Positions 2,678 to 29,981 of a stretch of DNA of 64,000 bases are shown here, piece by piece; the stretch's first letter is position 1, and each line of letters begins with the position of its first letter. This DNA comes from Promethearchaeota archaeon (GTDB lineage Archaea; Asgardarchaeota; Heimdallarchaeia; Hodarchaeales; Hodarchaeaceae). The notes below the pieces were generated by a model that saw nothing but the letters and a program-made list of their open reading frames with translations, was not told the origin of the DNA and did no database searches. Where the stretch lies: assembly GCA_048938105.1 (NCBI GenBank), contig JBHLMN010000027.1, forward strand, positions 1 to 64,000, given 5' to 3'. The position numbers and the translations under genes were made by a program.

Positions 2678-2986
2678 CTAGCGGTTTGGTAACCAATCAA
2701 CTCTTACTCCCTCTTTTTTCGCCAGTATATTGGCACATTCTAACTGAATTTCTGATATATCTAGTCCGATTACTTTTGCTCCCCATTTAGCTAATACTAT
2801 TGAGTTCTGTCCACCTCCACAACCAAGTTCTAGTATTCTTTTGCCTTTTACATTACCTAGTAAACCTAATTCCTTTTCACCAGGGGCCACAGGGCCATAA
2901 TGAACATCTTCTAACGAGATTCGGTTTTCTCCTTAGTAAGATCTTGAAATAGAATTCCAACTTTCGCGATTTTGGACATCATTCAA
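2678..2986 (-). pseudogene. Class I SAM-dependent methyltransferase, interrupted and truncated
   Basis: TTG start at 2986 after GAGGTG; in-frame TAA at 2935-2933 (SRSY*GENRISLEDVHYGP); motif I ILELGCGGG; ends early at 2678. Confidence 0.8.
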
Positions 2987-3212
2987 TAAAAACACCTCAA
3001 AACTGATGATTTTTACGTCAGAATTATAATTTCTTTGTTATTTTTATTCCATTCTTAATTGATTTTAAGACCGAAATCTCTGTTAGGTCTTGTATCCCGA
3101 AGATAAAAAGCTAGTTAAAAGATCTTGTTGCTTTTTCCCCTCAAGTACTCCTTTAGAGATAAAAAGAATAGAAAGGAGGTAAATATCTCTTCATGGGATT
3201 CTAGAGATGTTT

Positions 3213-5549
3213 CTATTTACATCTTCGTTTGTAAGCCATACTAACAATGAATATAGTGAAAAATCCAATAATAAAATCTATTCCAGGAGTATTTTGGCTA
3301 GTTTCCTCAGTGTCTTCGGAAGAAGTACCCATCGATGTACCTGTAGTAATAGCAGCAGTTGTAGTAGAAGAAGTAGTAGTAGTAGTATCGATCGTAGTAT
3401 CTGTAGTGGTTTCGGAAGTAGGGGGAGGAGGAGGAGATGAACCAGGTGTTGGTGTATCACTAGCAGAAAAATCAGCAGAGTTGTTATTTGTATCCGTGTT
3501 ATATACATCACGAGTCAAAGAGTAGCCAGAATCAACATCTAAAGTAGGAGTACCCTCAAGGCAGCCAGTTGACACTCCTCCAGTATCCCCATATTGAAGG
3601 GCATCTATCACGGTTTTGGTAGTATTGTCAACCAAACGGACACCATCAGGACCGTTTTGAAGATTAGCTCCAGGGTCGATCTGATCATAATTATCTACAG
3701 TATCATCTTGAGCAAGCACGTAGTAATCTTCTCCCTCAATCTCACCAGTGAGATCAATGAGAATGTAAGTTTCTTCATTAGCACCATTCACACCTTCGAG
3801 GATAATATCATGTTGGTCATCATTCAAATTGATCTTCGCTGACCCAGAACTGAAGATTTCAATGAAACAGCCAGTATCTATTGAAACGGTATCATATAAA
3901 ACTTCAGTTATTTTTAATAAACTTACATCGGGAATAATCCCAACAGCCCCAGGTGTTGGAATACTGGTGCCATAGAAATCTTGACTATTATCATCAGTAT
4001 CAGTATTCAGGTCATTTCGGCTAAGGGAATATCCTGGAAGGACATCCATTGCAGGAGTACCTTCAAGGCAACCAGTCGACACTCCTCCAGTATCCCCATA
4101 TTGAAGGGCATCTATCACGGTTTTAGTAGTATTATCAACCAAACGGACACCATCAGGACCGTTTTGAAGATTAACTCTAGGGTCAATCTGATCATAATTA
4201 TCTACAGTATCATCTTGGGCAAGTACATAGTAATCTTCTCCCTCAATCTCACCAGTGAGATCAATGAGAATGTAAGTTTCTCCATTAGCACCATTCACAC
4301 CTTCAAGGATGATATCTTTTTTGCTATCATCTAGATTGATTATTGTAGAACCTACATTATAGATTTCAACAAAGCAACCTGAGTCAGAGCTAATTGAGTC
4401 GTAAAAAACTTCACTTACTACCAAGCTAAGATCAGAAATAATATTACTTACTTCCCCAGGAGTAGCGGTTATAGTTTGATAGAAATCCTCACTATTATTA
4501 TTAGTATCAATATTCAGGTCATCACGTGTCAACGAGTATCCAGAATCAACATCCATTGTAGGAGTACCCTCAAGGCAACCAGTTGACACTCCTCCAGTAT
4601 CCCCATATTGAAGGGCATCTATCACGGTTCTGGTAGTATTGTCAACCAAACGGACACCATCAGGACCGTTTTGAAGATCAGCTCCAGGGTCAATCTGATC
4701 ATAATTATTCACAGTATCATCTTGGGCAAGTACATAGTAATCTTTTCCCTCAACCTCACCGCTGAGATCAATGAGAATGTAAGTTTCTCCAGTAGCGCCA
4801 TTCACACCTTCGAGGATGATATCATGATGGTCATCATTCAAATTGATCTTCGCTGACCCAGAATTGAAGATTTCAATGAAACAGCCAGTATCTATTGAAA
4901 CGGTATCATATAAAACTTCAGTTATTTTTAATAAACTTACATCAGGAATAATTCCAACAGCTCCAGGTGTTGGAATACTGGTGCCATAAAAATCTTGGCT
5001 ATTATCACCAGTATCAGTATTCAGGTCATTTCGGCTAAGGGAATATCCTGGAAGGACATCCATTGCAGGAAAACCTTCAAGACAACCAGTCGACACTTCT
5101 CCAGTATCCCCATATTGAAGGGCATCTATTATGGTTTTAGTAATATTATCAACCAAACGGACACCATCAGGACCATTTTGAAAATTAGCCCCTTCATCAG
5201 TTTGATCTGGAGTAAAATCAACTCCACTTTGGGCAACAACATAATAAGATCCTGCTGCAACAGTACCAGTAAGATCAATCGTGACATACACAGTTCCAGT
5301 AGCACCATTTACTCCCTCAACAATGATATCATGATTAATATCATCAAGGTCTACTGTTGTGGAACCTACGTTATAGATTTCAATGAAGCAACTCGTATCA
5401 GTCCCGATTGAATCATAAAAGATTTCACTAATAATAAGGTTTGAATAATCAGTAGATTGACTATTAACAATAAATATGGTTGTTGAAATCAAGAGGAAAA
5501 AAACAGATAAATATAGAATTGAGTTATTAAATCTCTTCATTTTACACAA
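3213..5549 (-). CDS. Surface protein with four lamin-tail-like (LTD) domains, Pro/Thr linker and PG-CTERM sorting signal
   Basis: Signal peptide; four repeats ISEIFYD...FIEIYN...LQNGPDGVRL...IDALQYG...SL.R...DT.DNS.DF...PTPG; C-terminus TPG-hydrophobic helix-KRRCK. Confidence 0.85.
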   Translation of the reverse strand: MCKMKRFNNSILYLSVFFLLISTTIFIVNSQSTDYSNLIISEIFYDSIGTDTSCFIEIYNVGSTTVDLDDINHDIIVEGVNGATGTVYVTIDLTGTVAAGSYYVVAQSGVDFTPDQTDEGANFQNGPDGVRLVDNITKTIIDALQYGDTGEVSTGCLEGFPAMDVLPGYSLSRNDLNTDTGDNSQDFYGTSIPTPGAVGIIPDVSLLKITEVLYDTVSIDTGCFIEIFNSGSAKINLNDDHHDIILEGVNGATGETYILIDLSGEVEGKDYYVLAQDDTVNNYDQIDPGADLQNGPDGVRLVDNTTRTVIDALQYGDTGGVSTGCLEGTPTMDVDSGYSLTRDDLNIDTNNNSEDFYQTITATPGEVSNIISDLSLVVSEVFYDSISSDSGCFVEIYNVGSTIINLDDSKKDIILEGVNGANGETYILIDLTGEIEGEDYYVLAQDDTVDNYDQIDPRVNLQNGPDGVRLVDNTTKTVIDALQYGDTGGVSTGCLEGTPAMDVLPGYSLSRNDLNTDTDDNSQDFYGTSIPTPGAVGIIPDVSLLKITEVLYDTVSIDTGCFIEIFSSGSAKINLNDDQHDIILEGVNGANEETYILIDLTGEIEGEDYYVLAQDDTVDNYDQIDPGANLQNGPDGVRLVDNTTKTVIDALQYGDTGGVSTGCLEGTPTLDVDSGYSLTRDVYNTDTNNNSADFSASDTPTPGSSPPPPPTSETTTDTTIDTTTTTSSTTTAAITTGTSMGTSSEDTEETSQNTPGIDFIIGFFTIFIVSMAYKRRCK
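3440..5445. repeat. Four 507-bp tandem intragenic repeats with A-B-A-B pattern
   Basis: CCAGTATCCCCATATTGAAGGGCATCTAT recurs at 3580, 4087, 4594 and 5101. Confidence 0.9.
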
Positions 5550-16473: not shown

Positions 16474-17808
16474 CTAGGTCAAGATCCCCTCACGCTCAAA
16501 GACTTTAGAGGCGATAAACAGACAGATCAGAATCACTACAATCAAGTAGCCAAAGTGGAGCACTAGATCCATAGCAATTCCTCCACCAGGTAAGCCACGA
16601 GTTAAGGCACTGGAAGCATATGTCTGGGGATATAATCCCTTGGAAAGAATAGCAATCGAATGAGCCCAAGGAATGATATAGAGAATGATTCCTGCGCCAC
16701 CAAAAGCTCGCTCTGGGATACCCCCAAACATACCAAGAAAACCCACCCCAAGAGCTGGAACCATCATGAGCATGTTATACATAGATTCAGCAGAACGCAC
16801 ATCTTTAGTCAAGCTAGCCACTGAAATACCTATGCCGATGGCAACAAACGCAGAAAGAAACATCATTGAAACAACCAGGATTAGCATGATTGGCGAAGGT
16901 TCGATTGCAAAAATAGTGGAATATTCCTCAGCACCAATAGTCCCTGCAGCAGCATCAATCATTGCTGTGAATAGGAACAATCCAAAAATATTCATTATTG
17001 CAAAAATCCCAATAAGAGCCATACCAGCGAGAAGCTTTGAGAAAAGAATATTAAAACGAGAAATTGGTAAAGCAAGGAGGGACTCCATAGTCTTCTTTTC
17101 TCTTTCCCCAGCAAAAGACGTCGATACGAACGGTGCTGGCGCTAAAACTGCCACCATGATTGATATCATACCAATAAAACCGATTCCAAACCCAGTTGCA
17201 GCACCTTCTTCCTTTGAGAAAACAACTGGTGAGGAGACAAAACCTACGACTTTATGATATTCCACAATATTGAATTGAGAAACTATCGACCAAACACCAG
17301 CTTCAAGCATAGAAGATCCAAGTATTCCACCTGGGAGAGAGTATAACTCTACCACAGGAGGAATATCACCCTCTGTTGCATTATAGTTCAAATATACTTG
17401 TGTAAAGTTTTTAGGAATGATAATACACGGAGTATAATCACTGGCTGTTTCAGAACTATGAATATTCTCTATTAAGCTTGGATAAGGCAAATCCGCATAC
17501 TTGGTGTCGTTGATTGTTGCTCCGTAAAGAATAGAGTTATTGGTTTGTGTAGCATTTACGAGTCTGTCAAGAAATACATCTCCGAGATTGAGATCGTATG
17601 TTTCATTCCCCTCATCATAATTAACAAAATATATTGTCACCCCTTCTTGAGAGGAGCCCATTACAAACCCCATAAGCATTTGGACTCCACCCTGTAATCC
17701 CCACATGAAAATAGGCATCAAAATGAACGTGAAAATCACATACCGAGTTCGTCGAGCACTTTGAAGTTCCTGTTTTACCAATGCCATTATTTGTTTAACT
17801 GTACTCAT
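16474..17808 (-). CDS. ABC-2 type exporter permease (NatB-like)
   Basis: AGEREKKTMESLLALPISR...SK motif, large extracellular loop, about 6 TMs. Confidence 0.9.
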   Translation of the reverse strand: MSTVKQIMALVKQELQSARRTRYVIFTFILMPIFMWGLQGGVQMLMGFVMGSSQEGVTIYFVNYDEGNETYDLNLGDVFLDRLVNATQTNNSILYGATINDTKYADLPYPSLIENIHSSETASDYTPCIIIPKNFTQVYLNYNATEGDIPPVVELYSLPGGILGSSMLEAGVWSIVSQFNIVEYHKVVGFVSSPVVFSKEEGAATGFGIGFIGMISIMVAVLAPAPFVSTSFAGEREKKTMESLLALPISRFNILFSKLLAGMALIGIFAIMNIFGLFLFTAMIDAAAGTIGAEEYSTIFAIEPSPIMLILVVSMMFLSAFVAIGIGISVASLTKDVRSAESMYNMLMMVPALGVGFLGMFGGIPERAFGGAGIILYIIPWAHSIAILSKGLYPQTYASSALTRGLPGGGIAMDLVLHFGYLIVVILICLFIASKVFEREGILT

Positions 17809-17812
17809 TTCA

Positions 17813-18631
17813 TCACCTTCGTCTTAAAATGCGAGAGATTAATCCTCGCTTTGGCTTCATTGAGTCTAAATCCTCTTCTAAAACGCCTTCTCCTGTTGTT
17901 AAACCAATGAAAACGTCCTCCAGATGAGCTTTTGTGAATTGTTCCTCAAGCTCATCGGGAGTGCCAATCGCGGCGAGCTTTCCTTTTACCAAAATCCCAA
18001 CACGCTCACATAGCTCTTCAACCTCCGATAAATCATGGGTAGTCAGGATTACCGTCTTATGAAGTTCTTTGGCCAGTTTTTTAATTAGGTTCCGTACCGT
18101 ACGAGCACCAAGGATATCAATACCAGTAGTGGGTTCGTCCAGAAAAATTAAATCAGGATCCATCACCAGGGCGCGAGCAACCAGAACTTTTCGTTTCATC
18201 CCACCAGAAAATTCCTTGGTAATATCGTTTTCACGACCCCGAAGACCAATCATGTCAATTAATTCCTCAGTGCGTCTGCGGACTTCTCCATTAGGTACAT
18301 TGCCATAAATTTGACCGTAATACATAATGTTCTCTTTTGCAGTTAAATTTTCGTAAACATCTGCCTCTTGCGGTAGAAGACTTGCTTTCTTTCTGATCTC
18401 CATAATGTCTTTCTTAATATCGAACGGGCCAAGACCATCATATTGGATACGGGCAGTCCCAGAGGTTGGTTTAATCAACCCAATCAGCAGACGAATGAGT
18501 GTTGTTTTTCCTGCTCCGTTAGGCCCTAATAAACCAAAAACCTCTCCCTTTCTAATTGTTAAGGAGACATTATCGAGAGCAATGTTGTCTTTAAACCGTT
18601 TTGTTAAATTCTCGATTTCAATGATATTCAA
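17813..18631 (-). CDS. ABC transporter ATP-binding protein
   Basis: GPNGAGKTT, FSGGMKR, FLDEPT, TTH. Confidence 0.95.
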   Translation of the reverse strand: MNIIEIENLTKRFKDNIALDNVSLTIRKGEVFGLLGPNGAGKTTLIRLLIGLIKPTSGTARIQYDGLGPFDIKKDIMEIRKKASLLPQEADVYENLTAKENIMYYGQIYGNVPNGEVRRRTEELIDMIGLRGRENDITKEFSGGMKRKVLVARALVMDPDLIFLDEPTTGIDILGARTVRNLIKKLAKELHKTVILTTHDLSEVEELCERVGILVKGKLAAIGTPDELEEQFTKAHLEDVFIGLTTGEGVLEEDLDSMKPKRGLISRILRRR

Positions 18632-18804
18632 ATATTATGTCACTCCATTTGTTTCTCTAAAATTTATTGCTTCTGTCTTTTTCTTTAGTTTTCTATGTTT
18701 TTATATCATTTAAACTCATTTACCAGTCATAATTTCTGAGTTCGGCTTTTACACATAATCTTTTTAAACAGATTTAATGCGGAAGTTCAGTAAGATAAGG
18801 AGAA

Positions 18805-19479
18805 CTAATTGGAAATAATCCTCTTAATCTCCCGTAGTTCATTTAACAATTCTTTATGGAATCCTAGTCTTACTGTTGGTGGGGTAGTAGGTTCAACTTC
18901 AGTTGTAGTTACGTATTGCCCACGAAACTGACGAAGCATTTCTAAAATGAAATCTCTGACTTCTATGAAGTTTCTAATTCCCTCAATCTTAGCTTCGGGA
19001 CCCATTTGCTGGCCAGACTTTCCAGCAGTTTCAAGTTCACAAGTACCAATACCAAAAAGCCGATCATAGATACCGTACCTAGAGCTTACATTTGTGATTG
19101 TACGGAATGGAATGTGTTTTACCTCTTTATTGAGAACACCCTTTTTGAGAATGACTTCATTATCTAAAATAACAAATTCCATAGTCCGTACGTAATAATC
19201 TATCAGAAAGAAAAGAATGGGTATAATACAGAACCAAATGAAAAAATACACAATCACAAGTCCAGGCCAATTAGCTGAAATCCACTGGCCAAGATCATCA
19301 CCAGAGGAATCACTATCAAATCCACCCACAAATGCTATAAATGAACCAAGACCAAAGATAGCTGCTGTAATAACAATGAATGCGGTTATTACATACAGAA
19401 AAAATTTACTTCGGAGCGCGGTTAGCGGATAGAAGGGTTTTCCTTTCACGATTTCTTCCAAATACAACATATAAATCAC
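18805..19479 (-). CDS. Membrane protein with bacterial PH domain (bPH_2/YdbS-like)
   Basis: Two TMs, then KKGVLNK..KHIPFRTITNV...DRLFGIGT.ELETAG; C-terminal amphipathic helix. Confidence 0.85.
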   Translation of the reverse strand: MIYMLYLEEIVKGKPFYPLTALRSKFFLYVITAFIVITAAIFGLGSFIAFVGGFDSDSSGDDLGQWISANWPGLVIVYFFIWFCIIPILFFLIDYYVRTMEFVILDNEVILKKGVLNKEVKHIPFRTITNVSSRYGIYDRLFGIGTCELETAGKSGQQMGPEAKIEGIRNFIEVRDFILEMLRQFRGQYVTTTEVEPTTPPTVRLGFHKELLNELREIKRIISN

Positions 19480-20154
19480 CTATTTCTTTAAGAGGACTTC
19501 TTTAATTTGTCTTAATTCCTCTAGTACTTCTTTCTGAAGGGCAACATCTCCAATTGCTTCCTCATATTGAGTGGGGTGTTCAACCTCAGTTGTAGTCGCG
19601 TATTGCCCTCGGAATCTTCTCAGCTCACTCAAGACAACATCTCGTACTTCTCTAAAATTACGAATCCCTTCAATTTTTTCTTCAGGCCCAGTTTGTTGTC
19701 CTGATTTACCAGCAGTCTCAATTTCACAAGTACCAATACCAAAAAGTCGATCATAAATCCCATAACGAGAACTGACATTTGTGATTGTTCTAAAGGGGAC
19801 ATGTTTTATGGTCTTGTTTATAATTCCCTTCTTAACGATGACTTCGGTGTCTTCAATGATATATTCAATATTTCGTACATAATAGATGACTAAGATAGCT
19901 GCAAGAAGCATCAAGATGACACTAATGATAAGATACCAAGATATTAATTCTTGACTATAATCTGTCAACCATTTTCCAAAACCATCACTAGAGGGTTCAT
20001 CATCTAGACTTACAAAAAAGATAATCATTCCTCCAAAAGCAATAATAATCCCTGTTACAACAATGAAGGTTGTTATTATATACAGGAATAGTTTATTCCT
20101 GAACGCAGATACAGGATAGAATGGTTTTTCTTTTTGAATCCTATTTAATTGCAT
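19480..20154 (-). CDS. Membrane protein with bacterial PH domain (bPH_2/YdbS-like)
   Basis: Close paralogue of 18805-19479. Confidence 0.85.
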   Translation of the reverse strand: MQLNRIQKEKPFYPVSAFRNKLFLYIITTFIVVTGIIIAFGGMIIFFVSLDDEPSSDGFGKWLTDYSQELISWYLIISVILMLLAAILVIYYVRNIEYIIEDTEVIVKKGIINKTIKHVPFRTITNVSSRYGIYDRLFGIGTCEIETAGKSGQQTGPEEKIEGIRNFREVRDVVLSELRRFRGQYATTTEVEHPTQYEEAIGDVALQKEVLEELRQIKEVLLKK

Positions 20155-20165
20155 TTTTTACTCAC

Positions 20166-20846
20166 TTACATCTTCTTATTTTTTAATAACTGTTTAATTG
20201 CTTTCAATTCGTTGATCATCTCCCTCTGAATCGTGGTTAGATCTGTTTCGTTATGATTAGGGACTTCTCTTCCCGAGATAACTGAATGATAGATTCGAAG
20301 CTGTCTTAAGATATAATCACGGATTTCATGATATAAGGGTAAGCCCTCTAATTTTTCCTCAGGGCCAGTTGCTCCACCTTTACCTGCAGTTTGAACATTA
20401 ACGCAACCTATACCAAAAAGTCGATCCAAAGGTCCAGCAGTCGTTGAAATATTAGTAACAGTGCGATAAGGGCAGTACTTAACAGTCTTGTTGATCAACC
20501 CTTTCTTAACAATTACCTCATTACCATGCACAATAAACTCCATTCTATTCACGTACAAAGGTAACATAATTATCGAAGGGAGTATAATTGCAATACTTAC
20601 AACCCAGTAAATTATTGTAAATACATTTTGGAAATTCGCTGGTCTAGGTTCTTCTGCAACGAACTCTATAAACCACCCCAATAACACAAACCCTAGACTC
20701 ACGCTAATCCAAACAAGGAATACTGTGAGATAATATTTCCATAGAAGAGCTCGTGTTGGATAGATTCGTCGGACTTCGGGTGTTGGAAATGTTCCTTCTC
20801 CTTTTATTATTTTAACTTGAGATTTTTGATTCATGATATTAGTCAC
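20166..20846 (-). CDS. Membrane protein with bacterial PH domain (bPH_2/YdbS-like)
   Basis: KKGLINK...PYRTVTNI...GPLDRLFGIG.V.VQTAG. Confidence 0.85.
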   Translation of the reverse strand: MTNIMNQKSQVKIIKGEGTFPTPEVRRIYPTRALLWKYYLTVFLVWISVSLGFVLLGWFIEFVAEEPRPANFQNVFTIIYWVVSIAIILPSIIMLPLYVNRMEFIVHGNEVIVKKGLINKTVKYCPYRTVTNISTTAGPLDRLFGIGCVNVQTAGKGGATGPEEKLEGLPLYHEIRDYILRQLRIYHSVISGREVPNHNETDLTTIQREMINELKAIKQLLKNKKM

Positions 20847-21348
20847 CTTCTCTTTTCACCCATCCTTTCTCCTGAATCTCGGAGAAAACATAACGAAACT
20901 GTTCAAGAATAGGTAAAGACGCTTGATTGTTCGATAATACGATATTCCGTTCTCTCTTTATCAAATCAAGAGTTTTTTGACAGTCTGGTCGGCATTTATC
21001 AGAACAATGATGCTCATACCAAGCTAAAATACCTTCTTCGGTAGTAAAGATGATATAAACCTTCGTATCATTCGTCCAATCGTAAGAAACCAACAACCCA
21101 GTATTTTTAGGCATCTTTGCCAAATCAGAATCTAACCGTAAACTCTTGGCAATGTTCTTCAACTGTTCCTCGATCTTCTTCCGTACTACGACTCTAGTCT
21201 TGTAAATACTACTAATACTTGCCTTTGTCTTCTTTTCTTTTCTTTCTTCATTTAGCTTTTTTGCTATGGCTTCCGCGGTCATTCCTTCATTTGTAAGTCG
21301 TAGTACTTCAAACTCGTAATCTGAGAGGAAATTTAGTCTTTGAGTCAT
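20839..21348 (-). CDS. Putative regulator: LuxR/sigma-4-like HTH plus C-terminal His/Cys motif
   Basis: LSDYEFEVLRL...GMTAEAIAKKL N-terminus; WYEHHCSDKCRPDC; paralogue at 50282-50830. Confidence 0.7.
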   Translation of the reverse strand: MTQRLNFLSDYEFEVLRLTNEGMTAEAIAKKLNEERKEKKTKASISSIYKTRVVVRKKIEEQLKNIAKSLRLDSDLAKMPKNTGLLVSYDWTNDTKVYIIFTTEEGILAWYEHHCSDKCRPDCQKTLDLIKRERNIVLSNNQASLPILEQFRYVFSEIQEKGWVKREGD

Positions 21349-21395: not shown

Positions 21396-21756
21396 CCATT
21401 GTGGAAGGTAAGGCAAAAAAACCTTTGATTGAGAACAACAAAGTTCATCGTTCTTTAAGAAAACCAAAATTGAATTAAGTAATTCTATATTCTTTTCCAA
21501 TCCAATTCCCTAAATTTTATAAACTGTAAAGTATTCGATATGAGGGTGTATAAACTCGAAGAAATCAAAGTCCTAAGGGATCAGTGGAATACTAATAATC
21601 ATTATTGAATTTAAAAACAAGTACCCAAAACTTAATTGGGTAACAATACATGATCTAATGATAAAAATTCTTATAACAATATCTAGGACTTAAGTTTGCT
21701 ATATCATCTATCTACCAGTATTAGTACAAGCAGAATTTAAAGGAGATCTTGATATA

Positions 21757-24700
21757 ATGAAAAGAAAGAAATTTTTTACAAAGTTCTTTATTATTCTTTG
21801 TTTAGCAATAACATTAATTCCAACTACTAGTGGTTTTTCTCACACCCAATCAGTTGATTGTATCCTTGTTCATAATTCCCAATGTGGATCCTGTGAGAAC
21901 CGATATAATAAGGAAGTCACTTCATTTTATGAGAAATATCAATCTGATGAGCGGATCAATTTCAAAATATATGATATTGCTAATTTAGAGGAACAAGACT
22001 CCTTTCTCAAAGAGATAGATAGATTAGGTATTGATCTTAACGTGTATGGTGATCTACCATATGTTATTTTTATCTGGGATACCAATATCCAAGTTCTTGA
22101 TGCTACTACATTGAATACAATTGACCAAAATTTTCAAGACATTTTATTAAATTTTACAAATATATCTCCTTCGTCTCCACAAAATAACTCTATCTCCCTT
22201 CTAGATTTCTTACCTGACTTCAATTATCCTATTCTGTATTTTACATTAGTTATTATTGCAATAGGAATATTCGTTATCCACAAAGGATATAGTCGATATC
22301 TAAAGCACGGCGGCTCCTTTATATACCCTCGTAGAATCTCTCCAATCCGTTTCTGGACTCTTCTTGCGTTATCTTCAATCTCTATTTCTCTTTTACTATA
22401 TCAATTTCTGGAAAGATTAGTAGGTGGGTGTGGGTGTGCCTCAGGAGGGGATATTGTACAAACATTGTTATTCCAAAAATACGATCATATCATTATTCTA
22501 GATTATGTAATTCCTATAGCGGCAATTGGAATTCTCTTCAATCTTAGTGTTATTTTGCAAATTATACTTCTTGGAGCGGTACGTTTTCGTCAGAAAAGAC
22601 AAATAATTGTAAAAATTTTATATTTTCTGTTAACAAGCCAAATGCTTGCATCATTATTGAGTTTGGCTTACCTAATTTATCTAGAACTGTTTGTGATCCA
22701 TTTTATTTGTACATTATGCACAGTTTCTCAAGTTATTATAGGTATCAATACAATTCTAATCATTACTTGGCAACCTTGGAAATTCAATGAGAGAAATCTA
22801 TATGTTTCAACTAAAAGAGTATTCAAATTCCCACTGGTTCATCCTAGACTAAAACAGCAATTATTCAAATTTATCTCACTTTCTATTCTTAATTTCGTTA
22901 TCTTAACATCTGTTGCTCCAATTGGCATTCCAACAGAAGAAACAACATCCATCACTGCTTGGAATATGCCAGATTTTCCATCCCAGTTGAATTCAGATAT
23001 GTGCTTTGAATGCAATAATCCTGTGTATAGAGATACGCAAGGGCCATTATCTTTACAAGGTCAGAATCCAGTTTATTCGCAGATAAATGAAATTCTATCA
23101 GATAAACCCGTATTCATCCTCTTCTACGCAGAATGGTGTGGTTTTTGCAAAAAACAGAAACCGATTCTTATGGAGTTGAGAGAGGAGTACTCTGATAGAA
23201 TAGAGTTCCTGTATATCAATGCACCAGAAAATCCCCAAATGATGCAAGATTTTGGTGTGACTGGCTTCCCAACTATGTTTTACATCGACAAGAATGAGGA
23301 GGGATATATTTATCGAGTTTTCCGAGGATTTAATGAGAAAAGTGTTTTAAGTGATTATTTTGATCTTGGTTATGTCGATGTCTCTGCTGATAAAGCAAAA
23401 CAGATAATTGACAGAAATAAAAATGCGATAATCCTAGATGTACGAACTCCCTCGGAGTATGAAACTGTTCGTATTAATGATAGCACATTAATCCCTCTTG
23501 CACATTTAGAAAGTAAAATGGATGAACTAGATAAAGAGGATTTCATTGTCGTTTACTGTAAAAGTGGGGGAAGAAGTCAGGAAGCAAGTAACATTTTGAA
23601 GGAACATGGTTTCCTTTATGTTCATAACATGGAAGGTGGGATAGAAGCTTGGCAAGAAGCTGGATTTCCAGTTGTACCAGAAACAGAGGTATCAGTAAGG
23701 TTCTCGATGGAAGCTGAAACTTGTAACTCCAATATAGATTGCAATACTGGAGAATATTGCGCCAAAAGTGCGGGAGATTGTACTGGTACGGGATTATGTA
23801 AAGATAAACTAAATAGTTGTCCAGAAGTCTGGATACCAGTATGTGGTTGTGATGGTGTGACATATAGCAATACATGCGAAGCGGCTTCCGCGGGGGAAAA
23901 CGTGGCTTATGAGGGAGAGTGTGGAATAACCTGTGCTTCAAATGACGATTGTAGTATTGAGGAGTTTTCCGCAGGAGAAAATGTGATTCACCAGGAGTGT
24001 ATAACTGATGCTGACTGTGATTCTCCTTTCGTATGCAGGAATGGGATATGTAGTGATTGTGTAGATGATACTGACTGTGATACTGGTTTCATTTGCGTCA
24101 GTGGGGTATGTACAACCTATGAGTGTGTAGATGATACTGACTGTGATGCTCCTTACATTTGCAAGAATGATGTATGTATAACCTTTGAGTGTGCAGATAA
24201 AGACTGTGATGATGGACAATATTGTAATGGGGCAGAAGTCTGTGTAGCTGGAATATGCGAATCAGGATCACCCGTGGATTGTAATGATGGAATCAGTTGT
24301 ACAGTCGATCAGTGTGATGAAATTACGGATTCCTGTGAGAATCAACCAGACGATACTCGGTGTGATAACGGCCAATTTTGTGATGGGATCGAGACCTGTG
24401 ATGCACTACTTGATTGTCAAGCTGGAACTCCTTTGGATTGTTCAGATTTCGATGACCAATGTAATGTCGGGATTTGTGATGAAGTTAATGATCAATGTGT
24501 TGCAAATCCAGATCCTTATGAAGGTCAGCCCTGTGACGATGGTGATCCTTATACGATTGGGGATACCTGTTCAGCAGGTGTCTGTATTGGAGAATCTGTC
24601 CAATGTGTCTCGGATAGCGACTGTGATGATGGACAATATTGTAATGGGGCAGAAGTCTGTGCAGCCGGAATGTGTGAACCAGGATCACCCGTGGATTGTA

Positions 24701-27700
24701 ATGATGGAATCAGTTGTACAGTCGATCAGTGTGATGAAATGACGGATTCCTGCGAGAATCAACCAGACGATACTCGGTGTGATAACGGCCAATTTTGTGA
24801 TGGGATCGAGACCTGCGATATCTTAACTGATTGTCAACCTGGGCTAGCCCCGAGTACCGATGATGGTGTGGGCTGTACGATTGATAGCTGTGATGAAACA
24901 ACTGATACAATTATCCACACTGCTGATGACAACCTCTGTGACAATGGATTATATTGCGATGGCATCGAAACCTGCGATGTGGTTCTAGATTGTCAGATGG
25001 GGACACCTCCCTGTGGGGATCTACCCTGTGACGAGGAAACAGATCAATGTGGCGAATGTACCGAGGATTGGCAGTGTGATAATGGCTTATTCTGTGATGG
25101 GGCCGAAATCTGTGTCGACTATCACTGTATGGCTGGTACACCTATAGACTGTGGTGATAGTGTAAGTTGTACAATTGACGCCTGTAACGAGTTGACGGAC
25201 TCTTGTGATCATTTACCGGACAATTCTCTATGCGATAACGGCCAATTTTGTGATGGCATCGAGACCTGCGATATCTTAACTGATTGTCAACCTGGGCTAG
25301 CCCCGAGTACCGATGATGGTGTGGGTTGTACGATTGATAGCTGTGATGAAACGACTGATACTATTACCCACACTGCTGATGACAACCTCTGTGACAATGG
25401 ATTATACTGTGATGGGATTGAGACCTGTGATGCGGTTCTAGACTGCCAAGTTGGAGTTTTTATAGATTGCTCTTCCTTTGAGGACCAATGTAACATTGGG
25501 ATCTGTGATGAAGTAAGCGATCAGTGTGTCGCCTCTCCAAAAACGGACGGCACCTCATGTGATGATGGCCAGTTTTGTACTATCAATGATGTCTGCAGGG
25601 CAGGGATCTGTGTCTTTGGAACTCCTGTAGATTGTACATATCTCGAAGACGAATGTAACATTGGGATCTGTGATGAAGTAAGTGATCAATGTGTCACCTC
25701 CCCGAAAGCGGACGGTACCTCATGTGATGATGGAAATGTCTGTACAACAGGTGATACCTGTTCAGCAGGGGTATGTACAGGGGGAACTCCACTTGATTGC
25801 AATGACGATAATGTATGTACTGATGATTATTGTGATCCATCATCAGGCTGCGTTTTCATTAACAATAATGCCCCTTGTGATGATGGGCTATATTGCACTA
25901 CTAACGATGTCTGTATGGAAGGGATTTGTACTTCTGGAGCTCCTAGGGATTGTACCTATCTCGAGGATCAATGTAACGTGGGGATCTGTGATGAAATAAG
26001 CGATCAGTGTGTCACCTCTCCAAAAACGGACGGCACCTCATGTGATGATGGCCAGTTTTGTACTATCAATGATGTCTGTATGGCAGGGATCTGTGGCTTT
26101 GGAACTCCTGTAGATTGTACATATCTCGAAGACGAATGTAATATTGGGATCTGTGATGAAGTAAGTGACCAATGTGTCGCCTCTCCGAAAGCAGACGGTA
26201 CCTTATGTGATGATGGAAATGTCTGTACAACAGGTGATACCTGTTCAGCAGGGGTGTGTACAGGGGGAACTCCACTTGATTGCAACGACGATAATGTATG
26301 TACTGATGATTATTGTGATCCATCGTCAGGCTGCGTTTTTATTAACAATAATGCCCCTTGTGATGATGGGTTATATTGCACTACTAACGATGTTTGTATA
26401 GCAGGGATTTGTACTTCTGGAGCTCCTAGGGATTGTACCTATCTCGAGGATCAATGTAACGTGGGGATCTGTGATGAAGCAAGTAATCAATGTGTTGCTT
26501 CTCCCAAAGAAGATGGAACCGCATGTAATGATGACCTCTTTTGCACTACTAATGATATCTGCATGGCAGGGATCTGTGGCTTTGGAACTCCTGTAGATTG
26601 TTCATATCTAGATGACCAATGTAATATTGGGATCTGTGATGAAGTGAGCGATCAATGTGTTGCGGATCCAAATCCTAAAGAGGGATTCAGCTGTGATGAC
26701 GGGGACGTATGTACCATTGGTGATACATGTCAATTAGGTGTATGCACTGGTATTCTAGATGAAACTGATTCTGATAATGATGGAATACTCGATTGTACTG
26801 ACCCCTGTCCTAATGACCCTGACAATGATGTTGATAATGATGGTATATGCGGGGACATGGATAATTGTCCTAACTTTACGAATCCCGATCAAACAGATAT
26901 AGATGGTGATGGATTAGGGGATAAGTGTGACCCCTGTCCACATGACCCTGCCAATGATGCTGATAATGATGGCGTATGTGGAGACGTGGATAATTGTCCC
27001 AGTGTTTCGAACCCCGATCAAACAGATACAGATAGTGATGGAATAGGAGATAAGTGTGACCCCTGTCCACATGACCCTACCAATGATGCTGATAATGATG
27101 GCGTATGTGGAGACGTGGATAATTGTCCCAGTGTTTCGAACCCCGATCAAACAGATACAGATAGTGATGGAATAGGAGATAAGTGCGACCCCTGTCCACA
27201 TGACCCTACCAATGATGCTGATAATGATGGCGTTTGTGGAGACGTGGATAATTGTCCTAACTTTACGAACCCCGATCAAACAGATACAGATGGTGATGGA
27301 TTAGGAGATAAGTGTGACCCCTGTCCACATGACCCTGCCAATGATGTTGATAATGATGGCGTATGTGGGGACGTGGATAATTGTCCTAACTTTACGAACC
27401 CCGATCAAACAGATACAGATAGTGATGGGGTAGGGAATGTGTGTGATAATTGTCCCTCTGATTTCAACCCAGATCAAGTGGATACTGACGGGGATGGCAT
27501 AGGAGATGTCTGTGAAAACGCTCCTCCTATTGCGGATGTGGGTGGCCCGTATAGTGGCGATGAAGGAACGATAATAACATTTAATGCATCCAGTTCCAGT
27601 GATCCTGATGGTGATGAATTATACTATCGATGGGATTTAGACAATGATGGAGTATGGGATACAGATTATTCTCCTGAACCGACAATCATACATGTATGGT

Positions 27701-28440
27701 ATGATGACTATATTGGGACAATTGTCCTTGAAGTCTCTGATGGAGAAAAAACAGATACAGTATCAACAACTATCACAATAAGTAATGTTGATCCTGAAGT
27801 ATATATCGATTTGATCTTACCAGAGTTTTTTGCCTTACCAAGCGATATAATATTATTTATTGGTAGTTTCATAGATCCAGGTACTTCGGATACACATACA
27901 ATTATGTGGGATTTCGATGACGGCTCTATAATACTTGATAATCTAGAACAATCCCATATGTATCTCGAACCTGGAATATACAACGTTTCGGTAACAATTA
28001 GTGATGATGATGGAGGTATTGGGACAGAAAATGTCATTGTTGAGGTTATCAGCCTCCAACAAGCATTAGAATCCATTAAGGAGATTATTGCCAGCTTTGA
28101 TACGTGTTACAAACTCAAAAAGATTCTCAAAATACATCTAGAGCTAGCTATCAAATTTTTGAATAAAGCAGATAAATTTAGAACCAAAGGTAAGGAAAAA
28201 CTCGCATTTATCATGCAATGGGTTGCAAAATTACAGTTACGGACCTTTCAAAGGATAATCTATGTCTTTGAAAGAAAAGATTGGATAACTATTGATATGG
28301 CAGAACTCTTGATCGCAATGACAAATAGAATAATACCAAAATTAGGTTTCGAAAATAGGAAGTCTCAGTTTCCCCATCCAGGCCCTCTAACTACTCGTCC
28401 AGGAGTAACATTTGTATGTTCTCCATTCTTTAATACTTGA
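21757..28440 (+). CDS. Giant membrane protein: Trx-like, VKOR, thioredoxin, rhodanese, Kazal, Cys-rich repeats, TSP3 repeats, PKD
   Basis: Signal peptide; CGSC (21883); VKOR YLIYLELFVIHFICTLC (22708); WCGFC (23134) with GFPT; rhodanese LDVRTPSEY/CKSGGRS/MEGGIEAW; Kazal PVCGCDGVTYSNTC; DNCP...NPDQ.D.D.DG.GD.CD repeats; PKD FNASSSSDPDGD..Y.WD and WDFDDG. Confidence 0.9.
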   Translation: MKRKKFFTKFFIILCLAITLIPTTSGFSHTQSVDCILVHNSQCGSCENRYNKEVTSFYEKYQSDERINFKIYDIANLEEQDSFLKEIDRLGIDLNVYGDLPYVIFIWDTNIQVLDATTLNTIDQNFQDILLNFTNISPSSPQNNSISLLDFLPDFNYPILYFTLVIIAIGIFVIHKGYSRYLKHGGSFIYPRRISPIRFWTLLALSSISISLLLYQFLERLVGGCGCASGGDIVQTLLFQKYDHIIILDYVIPIAAIGILFNLSVILQIILLGAVRFRQKRQIIVKILYFLLTSQMLASLLSLAYLIYLELFVIHFICTLCTVSQVIIGINTILIITWQPWKFNERNLYVSTKRVFKFPLVHPRLKQQLFKFISLSILNFVILTSVAPIGIPTEETTSITAWNMPDFPSQLNSDMCFECNNPVYRDTQGPLSLQGQNPVYSQINEILSDKPVFILFYAEWCGFCKKQKPILMELREEYSDRIEFLYINAPENPQMMQDFGVTGFPTMFYIDKNEEGYIYRVFRGFNEKSVLSDYFDLGYVDVSADKAKQIIDRNKNAIILDVRTPSEYETVRINDSTLIPLAHLESKMDELDKEDFIVVYCKSGGRSQEASNILKEHGFLYVHNMEGGIEAWQEAGFPVVPETEVSVRFSMEAETCNSNIDCNTGEYCAKSAGDCTGTGLCKDKLNSCPEVWIPVCGCDGVTYSNTCEAASAGENVAYEGECGITCASNDDCSIEEFSAGENVIHQECITDADCDSPFVCRNGICSDCVDDTDCDTGFICVSGVCTTYECVDDTDCDAPYICKNDVCITFECADKDCDDGQYCNGAEVCVAGICESGSPVDCNDGISCTVDQCDEITDSCENQPDDTRCDNGQFCDGIETCDALLDCQAGTPLDCSDFDDQCNVGICDEVNDQCVANPDPYEGQPCDDGDPYTIGDTCSAGVCIGESVQCVSDSDCDDGQYCNGAEVCAAGMCEPGSPVDCNDGISCTVDQCDEMTDSCENQPDDTRCDNGQFCDGIETCDILTDCQPGLAPSTDDGVGCTIDSCDETTDTIIHTADDNLCDNGLYCDGIETCDVVLDCQMGTPPCGDLPCDEETDQCGECTEDWQCDNGLFCDGAEICVDYHCMAGTPIDCGDSVSCTIDACNELTDSCDHLPDNSLCDNGQFCDGIETCDILTDCQPGLAPSTDDGVGCTIDSCDETTDTITHTADDNLCDNGLYCDGIETCDAVLDCQVGVFIDCSSFEDQCNIGICDEVSDQCVASPKTDGTSCDDGQFCTINDVCRAGICVFGTPVDCTYLEDECNIGICDEVSDQCVTSPKADGTSCDDGNVCTTGDTCSAGVCTGGTPLDCNDDNVCTDDYCDPSSGCVFINNNAPCDDGLYCTTNDVCMEGICTSGAPRDCTYLEDQCNVGICDEISDQCVTSPKTDGTSCDDGQFCTINDVCMAGICGFGTPVDCTYLEDECNIGICDEVSDQCVASPKADGTLCDDGNVCTTGDTCSAGVCTGGTPLDCNDDNVCTDDYCDPSSGCVFINNNAPCDDGLYCTTNDVCIAGICTSGAPRDCTYLEDQCNVGICDEASNQCVASPKEDGTACNDDLFCTTNDICMAGICGFGTPVDCSYLDDQCNIGICDEVSDQCVADPNPKEGFSCDDGDVCTIGDTCQLGVCTGILDETDSDNDGILDCTDPCPNDPDNDVDNDGICGDMDNCPNFTNPDQTDIDGDGLGDKCDPCPHDPANDADNDGVCGDVDNCPSVSNPDQTDTDSDGIGDKCDPCPHDPTNDADNDGVCGDVDNCPSVSNPDQTDTDSDGIGDKCDPCPHDPTNDADNDGVCGDVDNCPNFTNPDQTDTDGDGLGDKCDPCPHDPANDVDNDGVCGDVDNCPNFTNPDQTDTDSDGVGNVCDNCPSDFNPDQVDTDGDGIGDVCENAPPIADVGGPYSGDEGTIITFNASSSSDPDGDELYYRWDLDNDGVWDTDYSPEPTIIHVWYDDYIGTIVLEVSDGEKTDTVSTTITISNVDPEVYIDLILPEFFALPSDIILFIGSFIDPGTSDTHTIMWDFDDGSIILDNLEQSHMYLEPGIYNVSVTISDDDGGIGTENVIVEVISLQQALESIKEIIASFDTCYKLKKILKIHLELAIKFLNKADKFRTKGKEKLAFIMQWVAKLQLRTFQRIIYVFERKDWITIDMAELLIAMTNRIIPKLGFENRKSQFPHPGPLTTRPGVTFVCSPFFNT
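24199..26650. repeat. Nested near-identical intragenic duplications encoding Cys-rich modules
   Basis: Matching blocks at 24202/24619 (417 bp apart), 24781/25234 (453 bp) and 25558/26041 (483 bp). Confidence 0.85.
26795..27430. repeat. About five 129-bp tandem repeats (thrombospondin type-3)
   Basis: ATAATTGTCC at 26861, 26990, 27119, 27248 and 27377. Confidence 0.9.
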
Positions 28441-29981
28441 ATCCCATTAACAAACACATGAACAATACCACTCGCTAATTGATGTGGTTTTTCGTAAGTA
28501 GCATGGTCTTTTATCTTATTAGGGTCAAAAATTACAATATCAGCATAGAAATCCTCTTTTAAGAGTCCCCTATCTGTTATTTTGAGATTTATTGCTGGAA
28601 GTGATGTTAATTTCCGTATGGCTTCTTCTAGCGTAATAAGCTTCTCATCACGACAGTACTTCCCAAGGAGCCTAGTAACATTCCCGTAAGCTCTGGGATG
28701 GCAATTTGATTTCAGAAAAACACCCTCAGGAGCTTCTGATGCTTCATCAGACCCAAAGGACATATATGGAATCTGAATCTTCTTTCTCACATTTTCTTCA
28801 GACATCATAAAATAAACTGTACCTATTCGACTATCATCTTCTACCACCAAATCCATCGCAGTTTCTAGGGGATCCTTTCCTCGTTCTTTAGCTACTTGTG
28901 CTAATGTCATTCCTGTCAACGGTTTTAGCTTTTTAAATGCCACTAATAACATTTTTTCTGGCCCAGCTTCTAGATAAAGATTTTCCCAGGCTTTTGTCTC
29001 GGATAGGACTTCTGTCGTGATCTGTTTCCTCACATCTGGATCTTTTAACCGTTTGATTAATTCTTTGTGCCCTCCCTCATAAGTCCAAGGAGGAAATGAG
29101 GCAGTTAATCCTGTAGCTCCTGCAGTATAGGTATAACAATCCGTAGTTATCTGAAGACCTTTTTCTCTAGCATTATTTATTTTTTCAATTGCTAAATCGA
29201 ATTTATGCCAATTATTTCTTCCCGCTGCCTTTAAATGATAAATTTCTGCTCTAATATTTGCTTCCCTTGCGATAAAGATTAGTTCATCAATAGCTTCTAA
29301 AAATTGAGTCCCCTCACTCCGAATGTGACTTATATACATTCCATTATATCTAGCTGCAACCTTGCAAAGTTCAATTAATTCATTAGTATCCGCATAAAAA
29401 GCAGGAGGATAAATCAGGGCGGAAGCAACGCCAAGAGCTCCTTCTCGCATAGCTTGATCAACTAATCCCTTCATTTTTTCCATTTCTTCAGGAGTAGGTT
29501 TTCGATCTTCATACCCAAGTGTATGTATCCTGACTGTTGTGGCACCAACAAATGATGCAATATTACATGAGACGCCTTTTGCTTCCAAATACTCTAGATA
29601 TTCCGACAGGGAGGTCCAAGAAATATCATATTTGATATCCGATTGACGTTCAAGTAGTTCTTGCTTCATTTGTTCATTTAATGGGCCAGCAGACCATCCC
29701 TCTCCCATAACCTCAAGTGTTACACCCTGTCTTATGTCACTATAAGATCTACCATCTTCAATCAAGGAATCGGTAGCCCAGCTGAGCATGTTGATGAAAC
29801 CTGGGGTAATTGATAGGTTTTGGGCATCAACTATTGATTCCGCAGTATCCTGTTCTAAAGATCCTATCCCAGCAATCCGATCCCCATTGACTGCTATGTC
29901 TCCACGGAACGGGGGATTCCCACTTCCATCATAAACTGTACCATTTCGAATGATTAGATCGTAGTGTGTGATTTTTCTCAC
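28365..29981 (-). CDS. N-acyl-D-amino-acid deacylase family amidohydrolase
   Basis: IRNGTVYDGSG, QGVTLEV.GE, SHIRSE, CHPRAYG, ADIVIFDP. Confidence 0.9.
   Translation of the reverse strand: MRKITHYDLIIRNGTVYDGSGNPPFRGDIAVNGDRIAGIGSLEQDTAESIVDAQNLSITPGFINMLSWATDSLIEDGRSYSDIRQGVTLEVMGEGWSAGPLNEQMKQELLERQSDIKYDISWTSLSEYLEYLEAKGVSCNIASFVGATTVRIHTLGYEDRKPTPEEMEKMKGLVDQAMREGALGVASALIYPPAFYADTNELIELCKVAARYNGMYISHIRSEGTQFLEAIDELIFIAREANIRAEIYHLKAAGRNNWHKFDLAIEKINNAREKGLQITTDCYTYTAGATGLTASFPPWTYEGGHKELIKRLKDPDVRKQITTEVLSETKAWENLYLEAGPEKMLLVAFKKLKPLTGMTLAQVAKERGKDPLETAMDLVVEDDSRIGTVYFMMSEENVRKKIQIPYMSFGSDEASEAPEGVFLKSNCHPRAYGNVTRLLGKYCRDEKLITLEEAIRKLTSLPAINLKITDRGLLKEDFYADIVIFDPNKIKDHATYEKPHQLASGIVHVFVNGIQVLKNGEHTNVTPGRVVRGPGWGN

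Follow-up and report, generated by a model that had tools for sequence, protein, structure and literature searches.

Fusions of VKOR to a thioredoxin (Trx) domain are textbook knowledge (PDB 3KP9). In the Synechococcus VKOR-Trx (PDB 3KP9, 4NV2/4NV5/4NV6), a four-helix core, which carries a cysteine pair in a loop and a CXXC motif in its fourth transmembrane (TM) helix, is followed by a fifth helix, TM5, and by an outward-facing Trx-like domain with a CXXC of its own. In eukaryotes, QSOX combines the generation and the relay of disulfides in one polypeptide by means of a fused PDI-like Trx and acts on proteins of the extracellular matrix; it relies on Erv/FAD and oxygen, occurs as a soluble or single-pass protein, and has no client fused to it. 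The gene considered here lies at positions 21757-28440 of a 64,000-nucleotide stretch (the window; contig JBHLMN010000027.1) from the genome of a Promethearchaeota archaeon of the Hodarchaeales, referred to below as G000. Its product shares with Synechococcus VKOR-Trx all of the elements just listed, but it has in addition an N-terminal Trx-fold domain with a TM helix, it continues after the Trx into a rhodanese and a 1580-amino acid (aa) ectodomain, and its host is an archaeon. Unlike QSOX, it would use VKOR and a quinone, and its presumed client is part of the same chain. The reading favored here, to which a probability of about 0.65 is given, is that the N-terminal module would act mainly in cis, on the protein's own cysteine-rich ectodomain; this reading has a comparative basis.

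Other described systems come close to parts of this design. According to Goodstadt & Ponting (2004, as cited in PMC4555120), VKORs are marked by four conserved cysteines, of which two form a loop pair and two belong to a CXXC at TM4. Bevans et al. (2015, PMC4555120) describe the VKORs of Chloroflexus and Roseiflexus (Chloroflexi) as having an N-terminal Trx-like CXXC domain and as lacking a C-terminal Trx-like domain. This order, a Trx-like domain ahead of VKOR, is also that of a short form of ~365 aa found in the genus of the window protein; the window protein itself differs in carrying both N- and C-terminal Trx domains. A preprint reports that MauE substitutes for DsbB, that its CGC active site has been demonstrated by mutagenesis, and that ~9% of VKOR entries carry a fused thioredoxin-superfamily protein; MauE-thioredoxin fusions are covered as well, fusions to other proteins are counted there as a category only, and no enzyme-client fusions are described (bioRxiv 10.64898/2026.03.05.709764). 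In the searchable literature, no VKOR was found that is flanked by two Trx-fold domains or has a rhodanese in the same chain, nor any relay that is fused to a giant disulfide-rich client and conserved across species of an Asgard genus. The author of an earlier note on this DNA, made from the sequence alone, knew of no described protein with such an architecture. This stands for searchable papers; orthologues, however, have already been deposited as hypothetical or "rhodanese-like, partial" proteins.

The gene is a single stop-free open reading frame (ORF) of 2227 aa on the + strand, with the following parts:

21757..21834, + strand: N-terminal signal peptide or anchor (aa 1-26; MKRKK, hydrophobic core, TSG/F)
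21835..22221, + strand: N-terminal Trx-fold domain, predicted outward (aa 27-155; C43-G-S-C46, putative cis-Pro P101)
22225..22281, + strand: TM helix bringing the chain back to the cytoplasm (aa 157-175; hydropathy 2.21, helix in the AF2 model)
22342..22767, + strand: divergent VKOR four-helix core (aa 196-337; Pfam, fold, and invariant cysteines)
22843..22929, + strand: TM5, taking the chain outside again as in Synechococcus VKOR-Trx (aa 363-391; hydropathy 2.02)
22942..23076, + strand: flexible linker with C416-F-E-C419 (aa 396-440; pLDDT below 50)
23077..23367, + strand: Trx with the PDI-like motif WCGFC (aa 441-537; Pfam)
23368..23691, + strand: single-domain rhodanese, loop C601-KSGGR (aa 538-645; Pfam and Foldseek)
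23692..23931, + strand: cysteine-rich lead-in and one Kazal domain (aa 646-725, 10 Cys; Pfam)
23932..26736, + strand: ~18 cysteine-rich repeats of ~25-55 aa each (aa 726-1660, 138 Cys; Pfam and self-comparison)
26737..27651, + strand: calcium-binding TSP3 repeats, six 43-aa units and flanks (aa 1661-1965, 24 Cys; Pfam)
27652..28071, + strand: two PKD domains (aa 1966-2105, 0 Cys; Pfam PKD_4, two stretches)
28072..28440, + strand: basic C-terminal tail and stop codon (aa 2106-2227; 22 K/R, no hydropathy peak)

All of the motifs that the earlier note had listed for this uninterrupted frame are present (CGSC at 43, C225-G-C227, CTLC at 318, CFEC at 416, CGFC at 461, and C601 in CKSGGRS), and the description of the architecture as a whole is almost certainly correct.

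Part of the evidence for the favored reading comes from the distribution of the fusion, which was followed in a set of 40 genomes of relatives and in a 300-genome sample of the phylum. The common form in the genus is a protein of ~350-385 aa, which consists of a signal peptide, the Trx-fold CxxC domain, a TM helix, and VKOR, and which ends after TM4. The long form is found in four sequences from as many species. Besides the window protein, these are G012 (78% identity; its contig ends at aa 490), P0010, and P0002. P0010 (NCBI MFX1518213.1), which carries the annotation "rhodanese-like domain-containing protein, partial", has 67% identity over aa 1-650, rhodanese included, and breaks off within its first Kazal domain; no contig that encodes it was found on record. 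P0002, from the closed genome G015, is 55% identical; in it, 12 Kazal domains and then a C-terminal TM helix come immediately after the VKOR-TM5-Trx portion, and both the rhodanese and the CxEC linker are missing. The four long forms group as a single clade (support 100/100) when a tree is built from the 345 N-terminal residues that the sequences have in common. When 5.8 + 1.8 billion proteins were searched, no further case of this VKOR within a longer frame came up.

In every known case, the TM5-Trx extension is accompanied by a cysteine-rich ectodomain, even as the ectodomains themselves differ (12 Kazal domains in G015 versus Kazal/Dicty-type/TSP3 in the window protein). Among the 40 relatives, a cysteine-rich ectodomain was found only in G000 and G015; Kazal domains were likewise found only in these two genomes, where all of them lie within the fused ORFs, and TSP3 repeats were found only in G000, again within the fused ORF. 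In the phylum sample, matches to VKOR are confined to the class of the window genome (47 genomes), and long open frames are seen only in G000, G012, and G015; large sister families of this sample have none (for example, 0/76 and 0/68). Stand-alone VKORs of the canonical type, 150-200 aa long (54-90 bits), are present in other families of the class, and the genus of the window has the divergent form (26-38 bits), preceded by its N-terminal Trx-fold domain.

The membrane core of the protein is a divergent VKOR. Against Pfam VKOR (PF07884, curated cut-off 27.5 bits), the full 2227-aa protein scores 24.7 bits at aa 251-334, less than required; the cut-off is exceeded when residues 1-345 are scored alone (28.0 bits) and in the genome scan (30.2 bits). 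The profile matches 13 of 16 family members, with a best E of 2e-8, and P0002 reaches 32.1 bits. Since the sequence match to solved VKORs is marginal, the fold was relied on, and since Foldseek with a 650-aa model gave Trx and rhodanese matches only, aa 150-400 were modeled alone. With the resulting AF2 model (18-sequence alignment, pLDDT 78, pTM 0.70), Foldseek ranks 1-14 are all VKOR structures, from Synechococcus, human, and Takifugu (probability 1.00, TMq 0.35-0.48), after which the probability falls to 0.2. A VIA search of 48,161 chains placed Synechococcus VKOR 4nv2_A first (Z 13.0, rmsd 3.5, 161 residues aligned), with model residues 45-242 aligned to residues 17-183 of 4nv2_A, that is, from TM1 through TM5. 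The identity to this best structural match is nevertheless only 14-18%, and the Synechococcus loop pair is C50...C56, whereas that of the window protein is CGC.

All four VKOR-type cysteines, the loop pair and the TM4 CXXC, are present. The core comprises the loop C225-G-C227, a horizontal helix with a beta-hairpin, and, where TM4 begins, C318-T-L-C321; the residues that are invariant in the 16 family members are C43, C46, P101, C225, G226, C227, C318, C321, T322, S324, and Q325. Judged by profile, modeled fold, and cysteines, the window protein is a member of the VKOR family, divergent through its CGC loop; a thiol:quinone oxidoreductase role is predicted for the module by analogy.

The orientation of the chain is indicated by hydropathy, by the positive-inside rule, and by homology to the solved VKOR-Trx structure. 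TM helices are seen at residues 6-24, 157-175, 199-217, 254-272, 287-310, 313-335, and 373-391. The first of these is the signal-peptide peak, ahead of which lie four lysine or arginine (K/R) residues, and the start is conserved in the orthologues. The K/R-rich loops 176-198 (6), 272-286 (5), and 335-375 (8) fall on the same side of the membrane; consequently, the acidic N-terminal domain, the CGC loop, CTLC, and everything past residue 395 are predicted to be on the outer face. This supports the topology proposed before, in which both Trx domains, the VKOR CxxC, the rhodanese, and the repeats are outside. By hydropathy, the 2227-aa protein has no C-terminal TM helix.

The N-terminal of the two Trx-fold domains is predicted with high confidence. 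In the AF2 model (pLDDT 88-96), it has the order beta-alpha-beta-alpha-beta-beta-alpha, helix 1 beginning with the CxxC and strand 3 being preceded by the invariant Pro101. Neither Pfam nor NCBIfam has a match to aa 1-160, hhalign brings the domain into register with the thioredoxin profile at a probability of only 5.9%, and the PDB profile matches are to tryparedoxins at E 0.1-1.6, none of them significant. From the modeled topology and the motif register, the domain is predicted to be a minimal thioredoxin fold. Assignment to DsbA (PF01323) was rejected, as there is neither a profile match nor an inserted helical domain. A free-standing paralogue of this domain, a protein of 203 aa with a C-terminal TM anchor, is encoded in G018 (L006, positions 2695-3306, - strand); it directly adjoins the short-form VKOR gene and may be a separate, DsbA-like partner. 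In the second domain, Pfam Thioredoxin matches aa 445-533, which carry WCGFC, with 62.5 bits, the PDB sequence matches are thioredoxins and PDI a-domains, and the pLDDT is 90-96. The arrangement of TM5 followed by an outward Trx with a CXXC is that by which Synechococcus-type VKOR-Trx fusions are recognized.

The rhodanese (PF00581, aa 543-635, 63.9 bits; Foldseek match 3gk5, TMt 0.90, rmsd 1.5) is predicted to be of the catalytically active type, given its profile and its Cys-led six-residue loop C601-K-S-G-G-R. It is seen in at least two of the four long-form orthologues, and the CxEC motif of the linker is retained in G012 and P0010 and missing from P0002. Because the G015 orthologue does without it, the rhodanese is not essential to the design. 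A possible parallel is provided by PspE of the E. coli periplasm, an exported single-domain, single-Cys rhodanese that works with a Trx-fold protein, as may hold here. As cited in PMC5403849, Chng et al. (2012) found that PspE, when overproduced, restores disulfide formation without DsbA, acting together with DsbC. PspE is free, whereas the window rhodanese is fused between the Trx and the client and is absent from one orthologue. The rhodanese may be such a helper oxidant, or it may handle sulfane sulfur and persulfides together with the Trx in sulfidic sediment, where, as a matter of speculation, it could strip persulfides off cysteines of the client or the catalyst.

The ectodomain, aa 646-1965, has 172 of the 187 cysteines of the ORF. 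The earlier note was right that a long stretch runs from Kazal to TSP3, but it put the length at about 1250 aa rather than ~1320 aa. Kazal_1 (PF00050, 35.4 bits) and Kazal_2 (PF07648, 27.3 bits) match at about aa 681-722 when aa 645-760 are scanned, and the domain is predicted to be protease-inhibitor-like. Pfam Dicty_CTDC (29.1 bits), DUF7107 repeats, TSP_3 (PF02412, 51.8 bits; genome-scan matches at 26821-27408), and PKD_4 (PF18911, 78.4 bits) are also matched. Every cysteine-rich repeat unit has either 4 or 8 cysteines and every TSP3 unit has 4, counts that are consistent with up to 86 disulfides. Recent tandem duplications are evident, with repeats up to 96% identical (e.g., aa 1242-1400 versus 1403-1561). 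To judge from the TSP3 repeats, the PKD domains, and an Asp content of 18.5%, the ectodomain in its mature form is most likely an adhesive or matrix protein that binds calcium and has a Kazal head; the G015 version looks, from its domains, like a multi-headed protease inhibitor array. A foreign origin of the ectodomain was considered and rejected. GC content climbs to 0.44 in this region, yet its GC at third codon positions (GC3, 0.29-0.33) is like that of the remainder of the gene and of the neighboring genes, so the rise reflects the content of Cys, Asp, and Gly.

It might be argued that the fusion was created by a gene-calling error or by the chimeric joining of a membrane redox gene to a repeat-protein gene. 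The assembly (5.85 Mb, 99% complete) is in 65 contigs and has 7% contamination, and the internal repeats at ~24231-27399 are fragmented in short-read contigs. However, run X1, perhaps the source sample, has a contig that extends over 21500-24231 without a difference; contigs of X2, another sample with a strain that bears single-nucleotide polymorphisms, cover 21825-22836 and 23148-24231; and the mangrove runs X3 and X4, from another study, cover 22599-23021, 22894-23323, and 23521-23814. The junctions at 22850-23100 and 23680-23950, which had been singled out as the places where a chimera would show, are thus both crossed by contigs that come from other samples and from a separate study. Furthermore, the same fusion is found in the closed genome G015, in a contig of 3,155,959 bases, and in P0010, and the GC3 of the ectodomain is that of its surroundings. 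Both junctions are real, an artefact is effectively refuted there, and such an origin for the protein is extremely improbable. The repeat count in ~24231-27399 is excepted: the fragmentation of the short-read contigs makes the exact number uncertain, and one X2 contig, which joins 26102 to 26656 and so skips 553 nt, suggests, with the fragmentation, variation in repeat number or collapse.

Taken together, these findings can be accommodated in the following model. The gene product would be a membrane-anchored surface protein whose first ~540-650 residues form an outward-facing, disulfide-generating relay and whose next ~1320 residues are the main client of that relay. After Sec insertion, the N-terminal Trx-fold domain and the VKOR loop would face outward, and TM5 would take the chain out again. 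The PDI-like Trx and the rhodanese would fold first, and the 1580-aa remainder would then leave the translocon. As the Trx is translocated just before the ectodomain and sits beside TM5 on a linker of ~45 residues, its local concentration at the 172 cysteines would be very high. Electrons would pass from Cys pairs of the nascent ectodomain to C461/C464 of the Trx and/or to C43/C46 of the N-terminal domain, the ancestral one, the division of labor between the two being conjectural, and from there to C225-G-C227 in the VKOR loop, to C318/C321 in TM4, and to a membrane quinone; the last of these steps are modeled on the Synechococcus VKOR-Trx relay. The final sink would be a terminal oxidase, such as the cytochrome bd encoded in the genome. 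The presence of genes for this oxidase (489.7 bits), together with two NuoH-like genes and over 10 genes of the UbiA family, makes a quinone sink plausible. The description of the protein as a "self-contained" oxidative-folding machine in the earlier note is nonetheless too strong, since a membrane quinone and a terminal sink would still be needed and action in trans is possible as well.

The favored reading, in which the module acts mainly in cis, has to be weighed against the alternative that it is a housekeeping disulfide generator, a general system of the DsbB/DsbA type that serves many proteins in trans, with the ectodomain merely tethered to it or one client among many. The two are mutually compatible, and the common form in the genus, ~365 aa of Trx-fold-VKOR with no ectodomain, does suggest that the ancestral module works in trans on other clients, as do the sister species, in which the short form is present and no cysteine-rich ectodomain was found. 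In addition, the fused gene is the sole VKOR in the genome by Pfam scan, no DsbA-family gene was found there, and in G018 the paralogue of the N-terminal domain stands free beside VKOR. Against this stand findings from G000. In a six-frame ORF census, the window protein, with its 187 cysteines, is the only cysteine-rich exported protein, the next highest count (41) being that of a cytoplasmic Fe-S type protein, and the dozens of other giant signal-peptide ORFs (1500-8856 aa) contain 0.2-0.6% Cys. By a crude method, exported ORFs show no bias toward even Cys numbers (fraction 0.48 versus 0.45 in cytoplasmic-like ORFs) and are poor in Cys (0.85% versus 1.17%), which, as far as so rough a test allows, argues against many trans clients. 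Furthermore, the extra TM5-Trx unit occurs only alongside cysteine-rich ectodomains. A general trans system is regarded as unlikely to be the main function. Another alternative, raised in the earlier note, is that the protein is an extracellular sulfur or redox device in which the Trx-rhodanese pair handles sulfane sulfur, persulfides, or polysulfide, and the cysteine array is a reservoir for redox equivalents, sulfur, or thiophilic metals instead of a structure locked by disulfides. The active-site Cys of the rhodanese is intact, many giant surface proteins, Cys-poor ones among them, start with closely related rhodanese-Trx cassettes, and the best-matching runs are labeled sediment and mangrove metagenomes; sulfur transfer between rhodanese and thioredoxin is moreover established for GlpE and PspE (PMC2593051). 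But sulfur transfer needs no VKOR, Kazal and TSP3 are classical disulfide-bonded folds, with 4 or 8 Cys in every repeat unit, and the G015 orthologue has the VKOR-Trx portion and a 12-Kazal ectodomain without a rhodanese. Disulfide-knotted folds, even Cys counts, and this orthologue leave the reservoir idea unsupported, and the sulfur device is regarded as quite improbable.

Cis action on the ectodomain is the best-supported reading of the three, as the TM5-Trx extension occurs only with a cysteine-rich ectodomain, Kazal and TSP3 domains were found among the 40 relatives only in fused ORFs, and the gene encodes both the only cysteine-rich exported protein and the only VKOR of its genome; the earlier suggestion of a catalyst for the protein's own disulfide-rich domain is upheld to this extent, on comparative evidence. 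Several observations nevertheless weigh against it. Because the long forms all belong to one clade, the co-occurrence of extension and ectodomain amounts to a single evolutionary event that was maintained and diversified. The same fact that the fused form is the only VKOR counts here too, as does the short form without an ectodomain in sister species. Related Trx-rhodanese cassettes also head Cys-poor giants, so that a role other than self-folding is conceivable for them. The VKOR itself is divergent: in a PDB profile search with the family alignment, solved VKORs appear only at E 0.46-0.92, over TM3-TM4; the loop pair has the spacing CGC instead of the canonical ~Cx6C; and a Ser/Thr two positions past C227, a possible counterpart of the canonical loop Ser, is kept in only 12 of the 16 members. 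Finally, neither a marker of the menaquinone futalosine route nor a heme-copper oxidase was found in the genome, which is not proof of absence.

The surroundings of the gene contribute little. Upstream, at window positions 16474-21348, the opposite strand encodes three bPH_2 membrane proteins in tandem, an ABC ATPase with a permease, and a product of 169 aa without a Pfam match; the ORF for the last is transcribed divergently from the large gene, with a 408-nt spacer between them. No synteny was found between the window locus and that of the G015 orthologue, beside which no homologue of the upstream neighbors is found; the neighbors thus give no functional hint. The tail, aa 2106-2227, matches no Pfam or NCBIfam family and has no paralogue in the genome. 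At its 3' end, the large ORF overlaps the 3' end of a convergent amidohydrolase ORF (28365-29981) by 76 nt, and in a related strain, an insertion of 1 nt at 28353 would alter the final residues of the tail.

A wider perspective is provided by the closest relatives of the thioredoxin domain, which lie inside other giant proteins. In the bacterial proteins P0006, P0008, P0049, and P0051, an N-terminal MauE/DoxX module of five TM helices, with a CxC near residue 109, precedes one or two thioredoxins, with 37-51% identity to that of the window protein, and then large, often Cys-rich regions. P0006, from Chloroflexota, has EGF/teneurin, ephrin-receptor-like, and TNFR-like domains and 11.8% Cys; P0051 and P0049 contain 8.1% and 13.7% Cys, respectively; and P0008 has TSP3 and five PKD domains. 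These giants have in common with the window protein a thiol oxidoreductase of 4-5 TM helices with an outward CxC, a Trx, and a large ectodomain; the membrane family, however, is MauE/DoxX and not VKOR, and the hosts are bacteria. As MauE substitutes for DsbB, these MauE-Trx-EGF/TSP3 proteins look like convergent analogues that have arrived at the same design. In another group of relatives (P0004, P0005, P0024, P0025, P0037, P0039, P0064, and P0067), a signal peptide comes first, then a rhodanese and a thioredoxin that are close to those of the window protein, and then 1000-4000 aa of surface domains; these are surface proteins of 1000-4300 aa, some Cys-rich (3.7-5.4%) and some not (0.6-1.3%); the latter are the Cys-poor giants referred to above.

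These comparisons have led to a broader, and tentative, proposal, which at present is judged slightly more doubtful than probable: the fusion of an enzyme to its client may be a general, so far undescribed route by which prokaryotes with Cys-poor secretomes come to possess matrix domains of the disulfide-knotted, eukaryote-like kind, for example Kazal, TSP3, and EGF, and it may have arisen at least twice. If so, it would have arisen with VKOR in Asgard archaea of the Hodarchaeales type and with MauE in bacteria, and such domains would be viable only when joined to a membrane thiol oxidase and a PDI-like thioredoxin. DsbB/DsbA, VKOR-Trx, and MauE have all been described as acting on separate clients, and a conserved fusion of relay and client would be a different organizing principle. 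It also offers a clean test of oxidative folding in cis versus in trans and could serve as a tool for the production of disulfide-rich proteins. A gene of a Heimdall-type Asgard archaeon that unites VKOR, a PDI-like thioredoxin, and the matrix domains Kazal and TSP3 bears on how the eukaryotic toolkits for secretory oxidative folding and for the extracellular matrix were assembled. If the proposal is true, the window protein would represent a one-polypeptide forerunner of the logic of the endoplasmic reticulum, in which VKOR and PDI serve a secreted, Cys-rich matrix, in a lineage that is often placed closest to eukaryotes.

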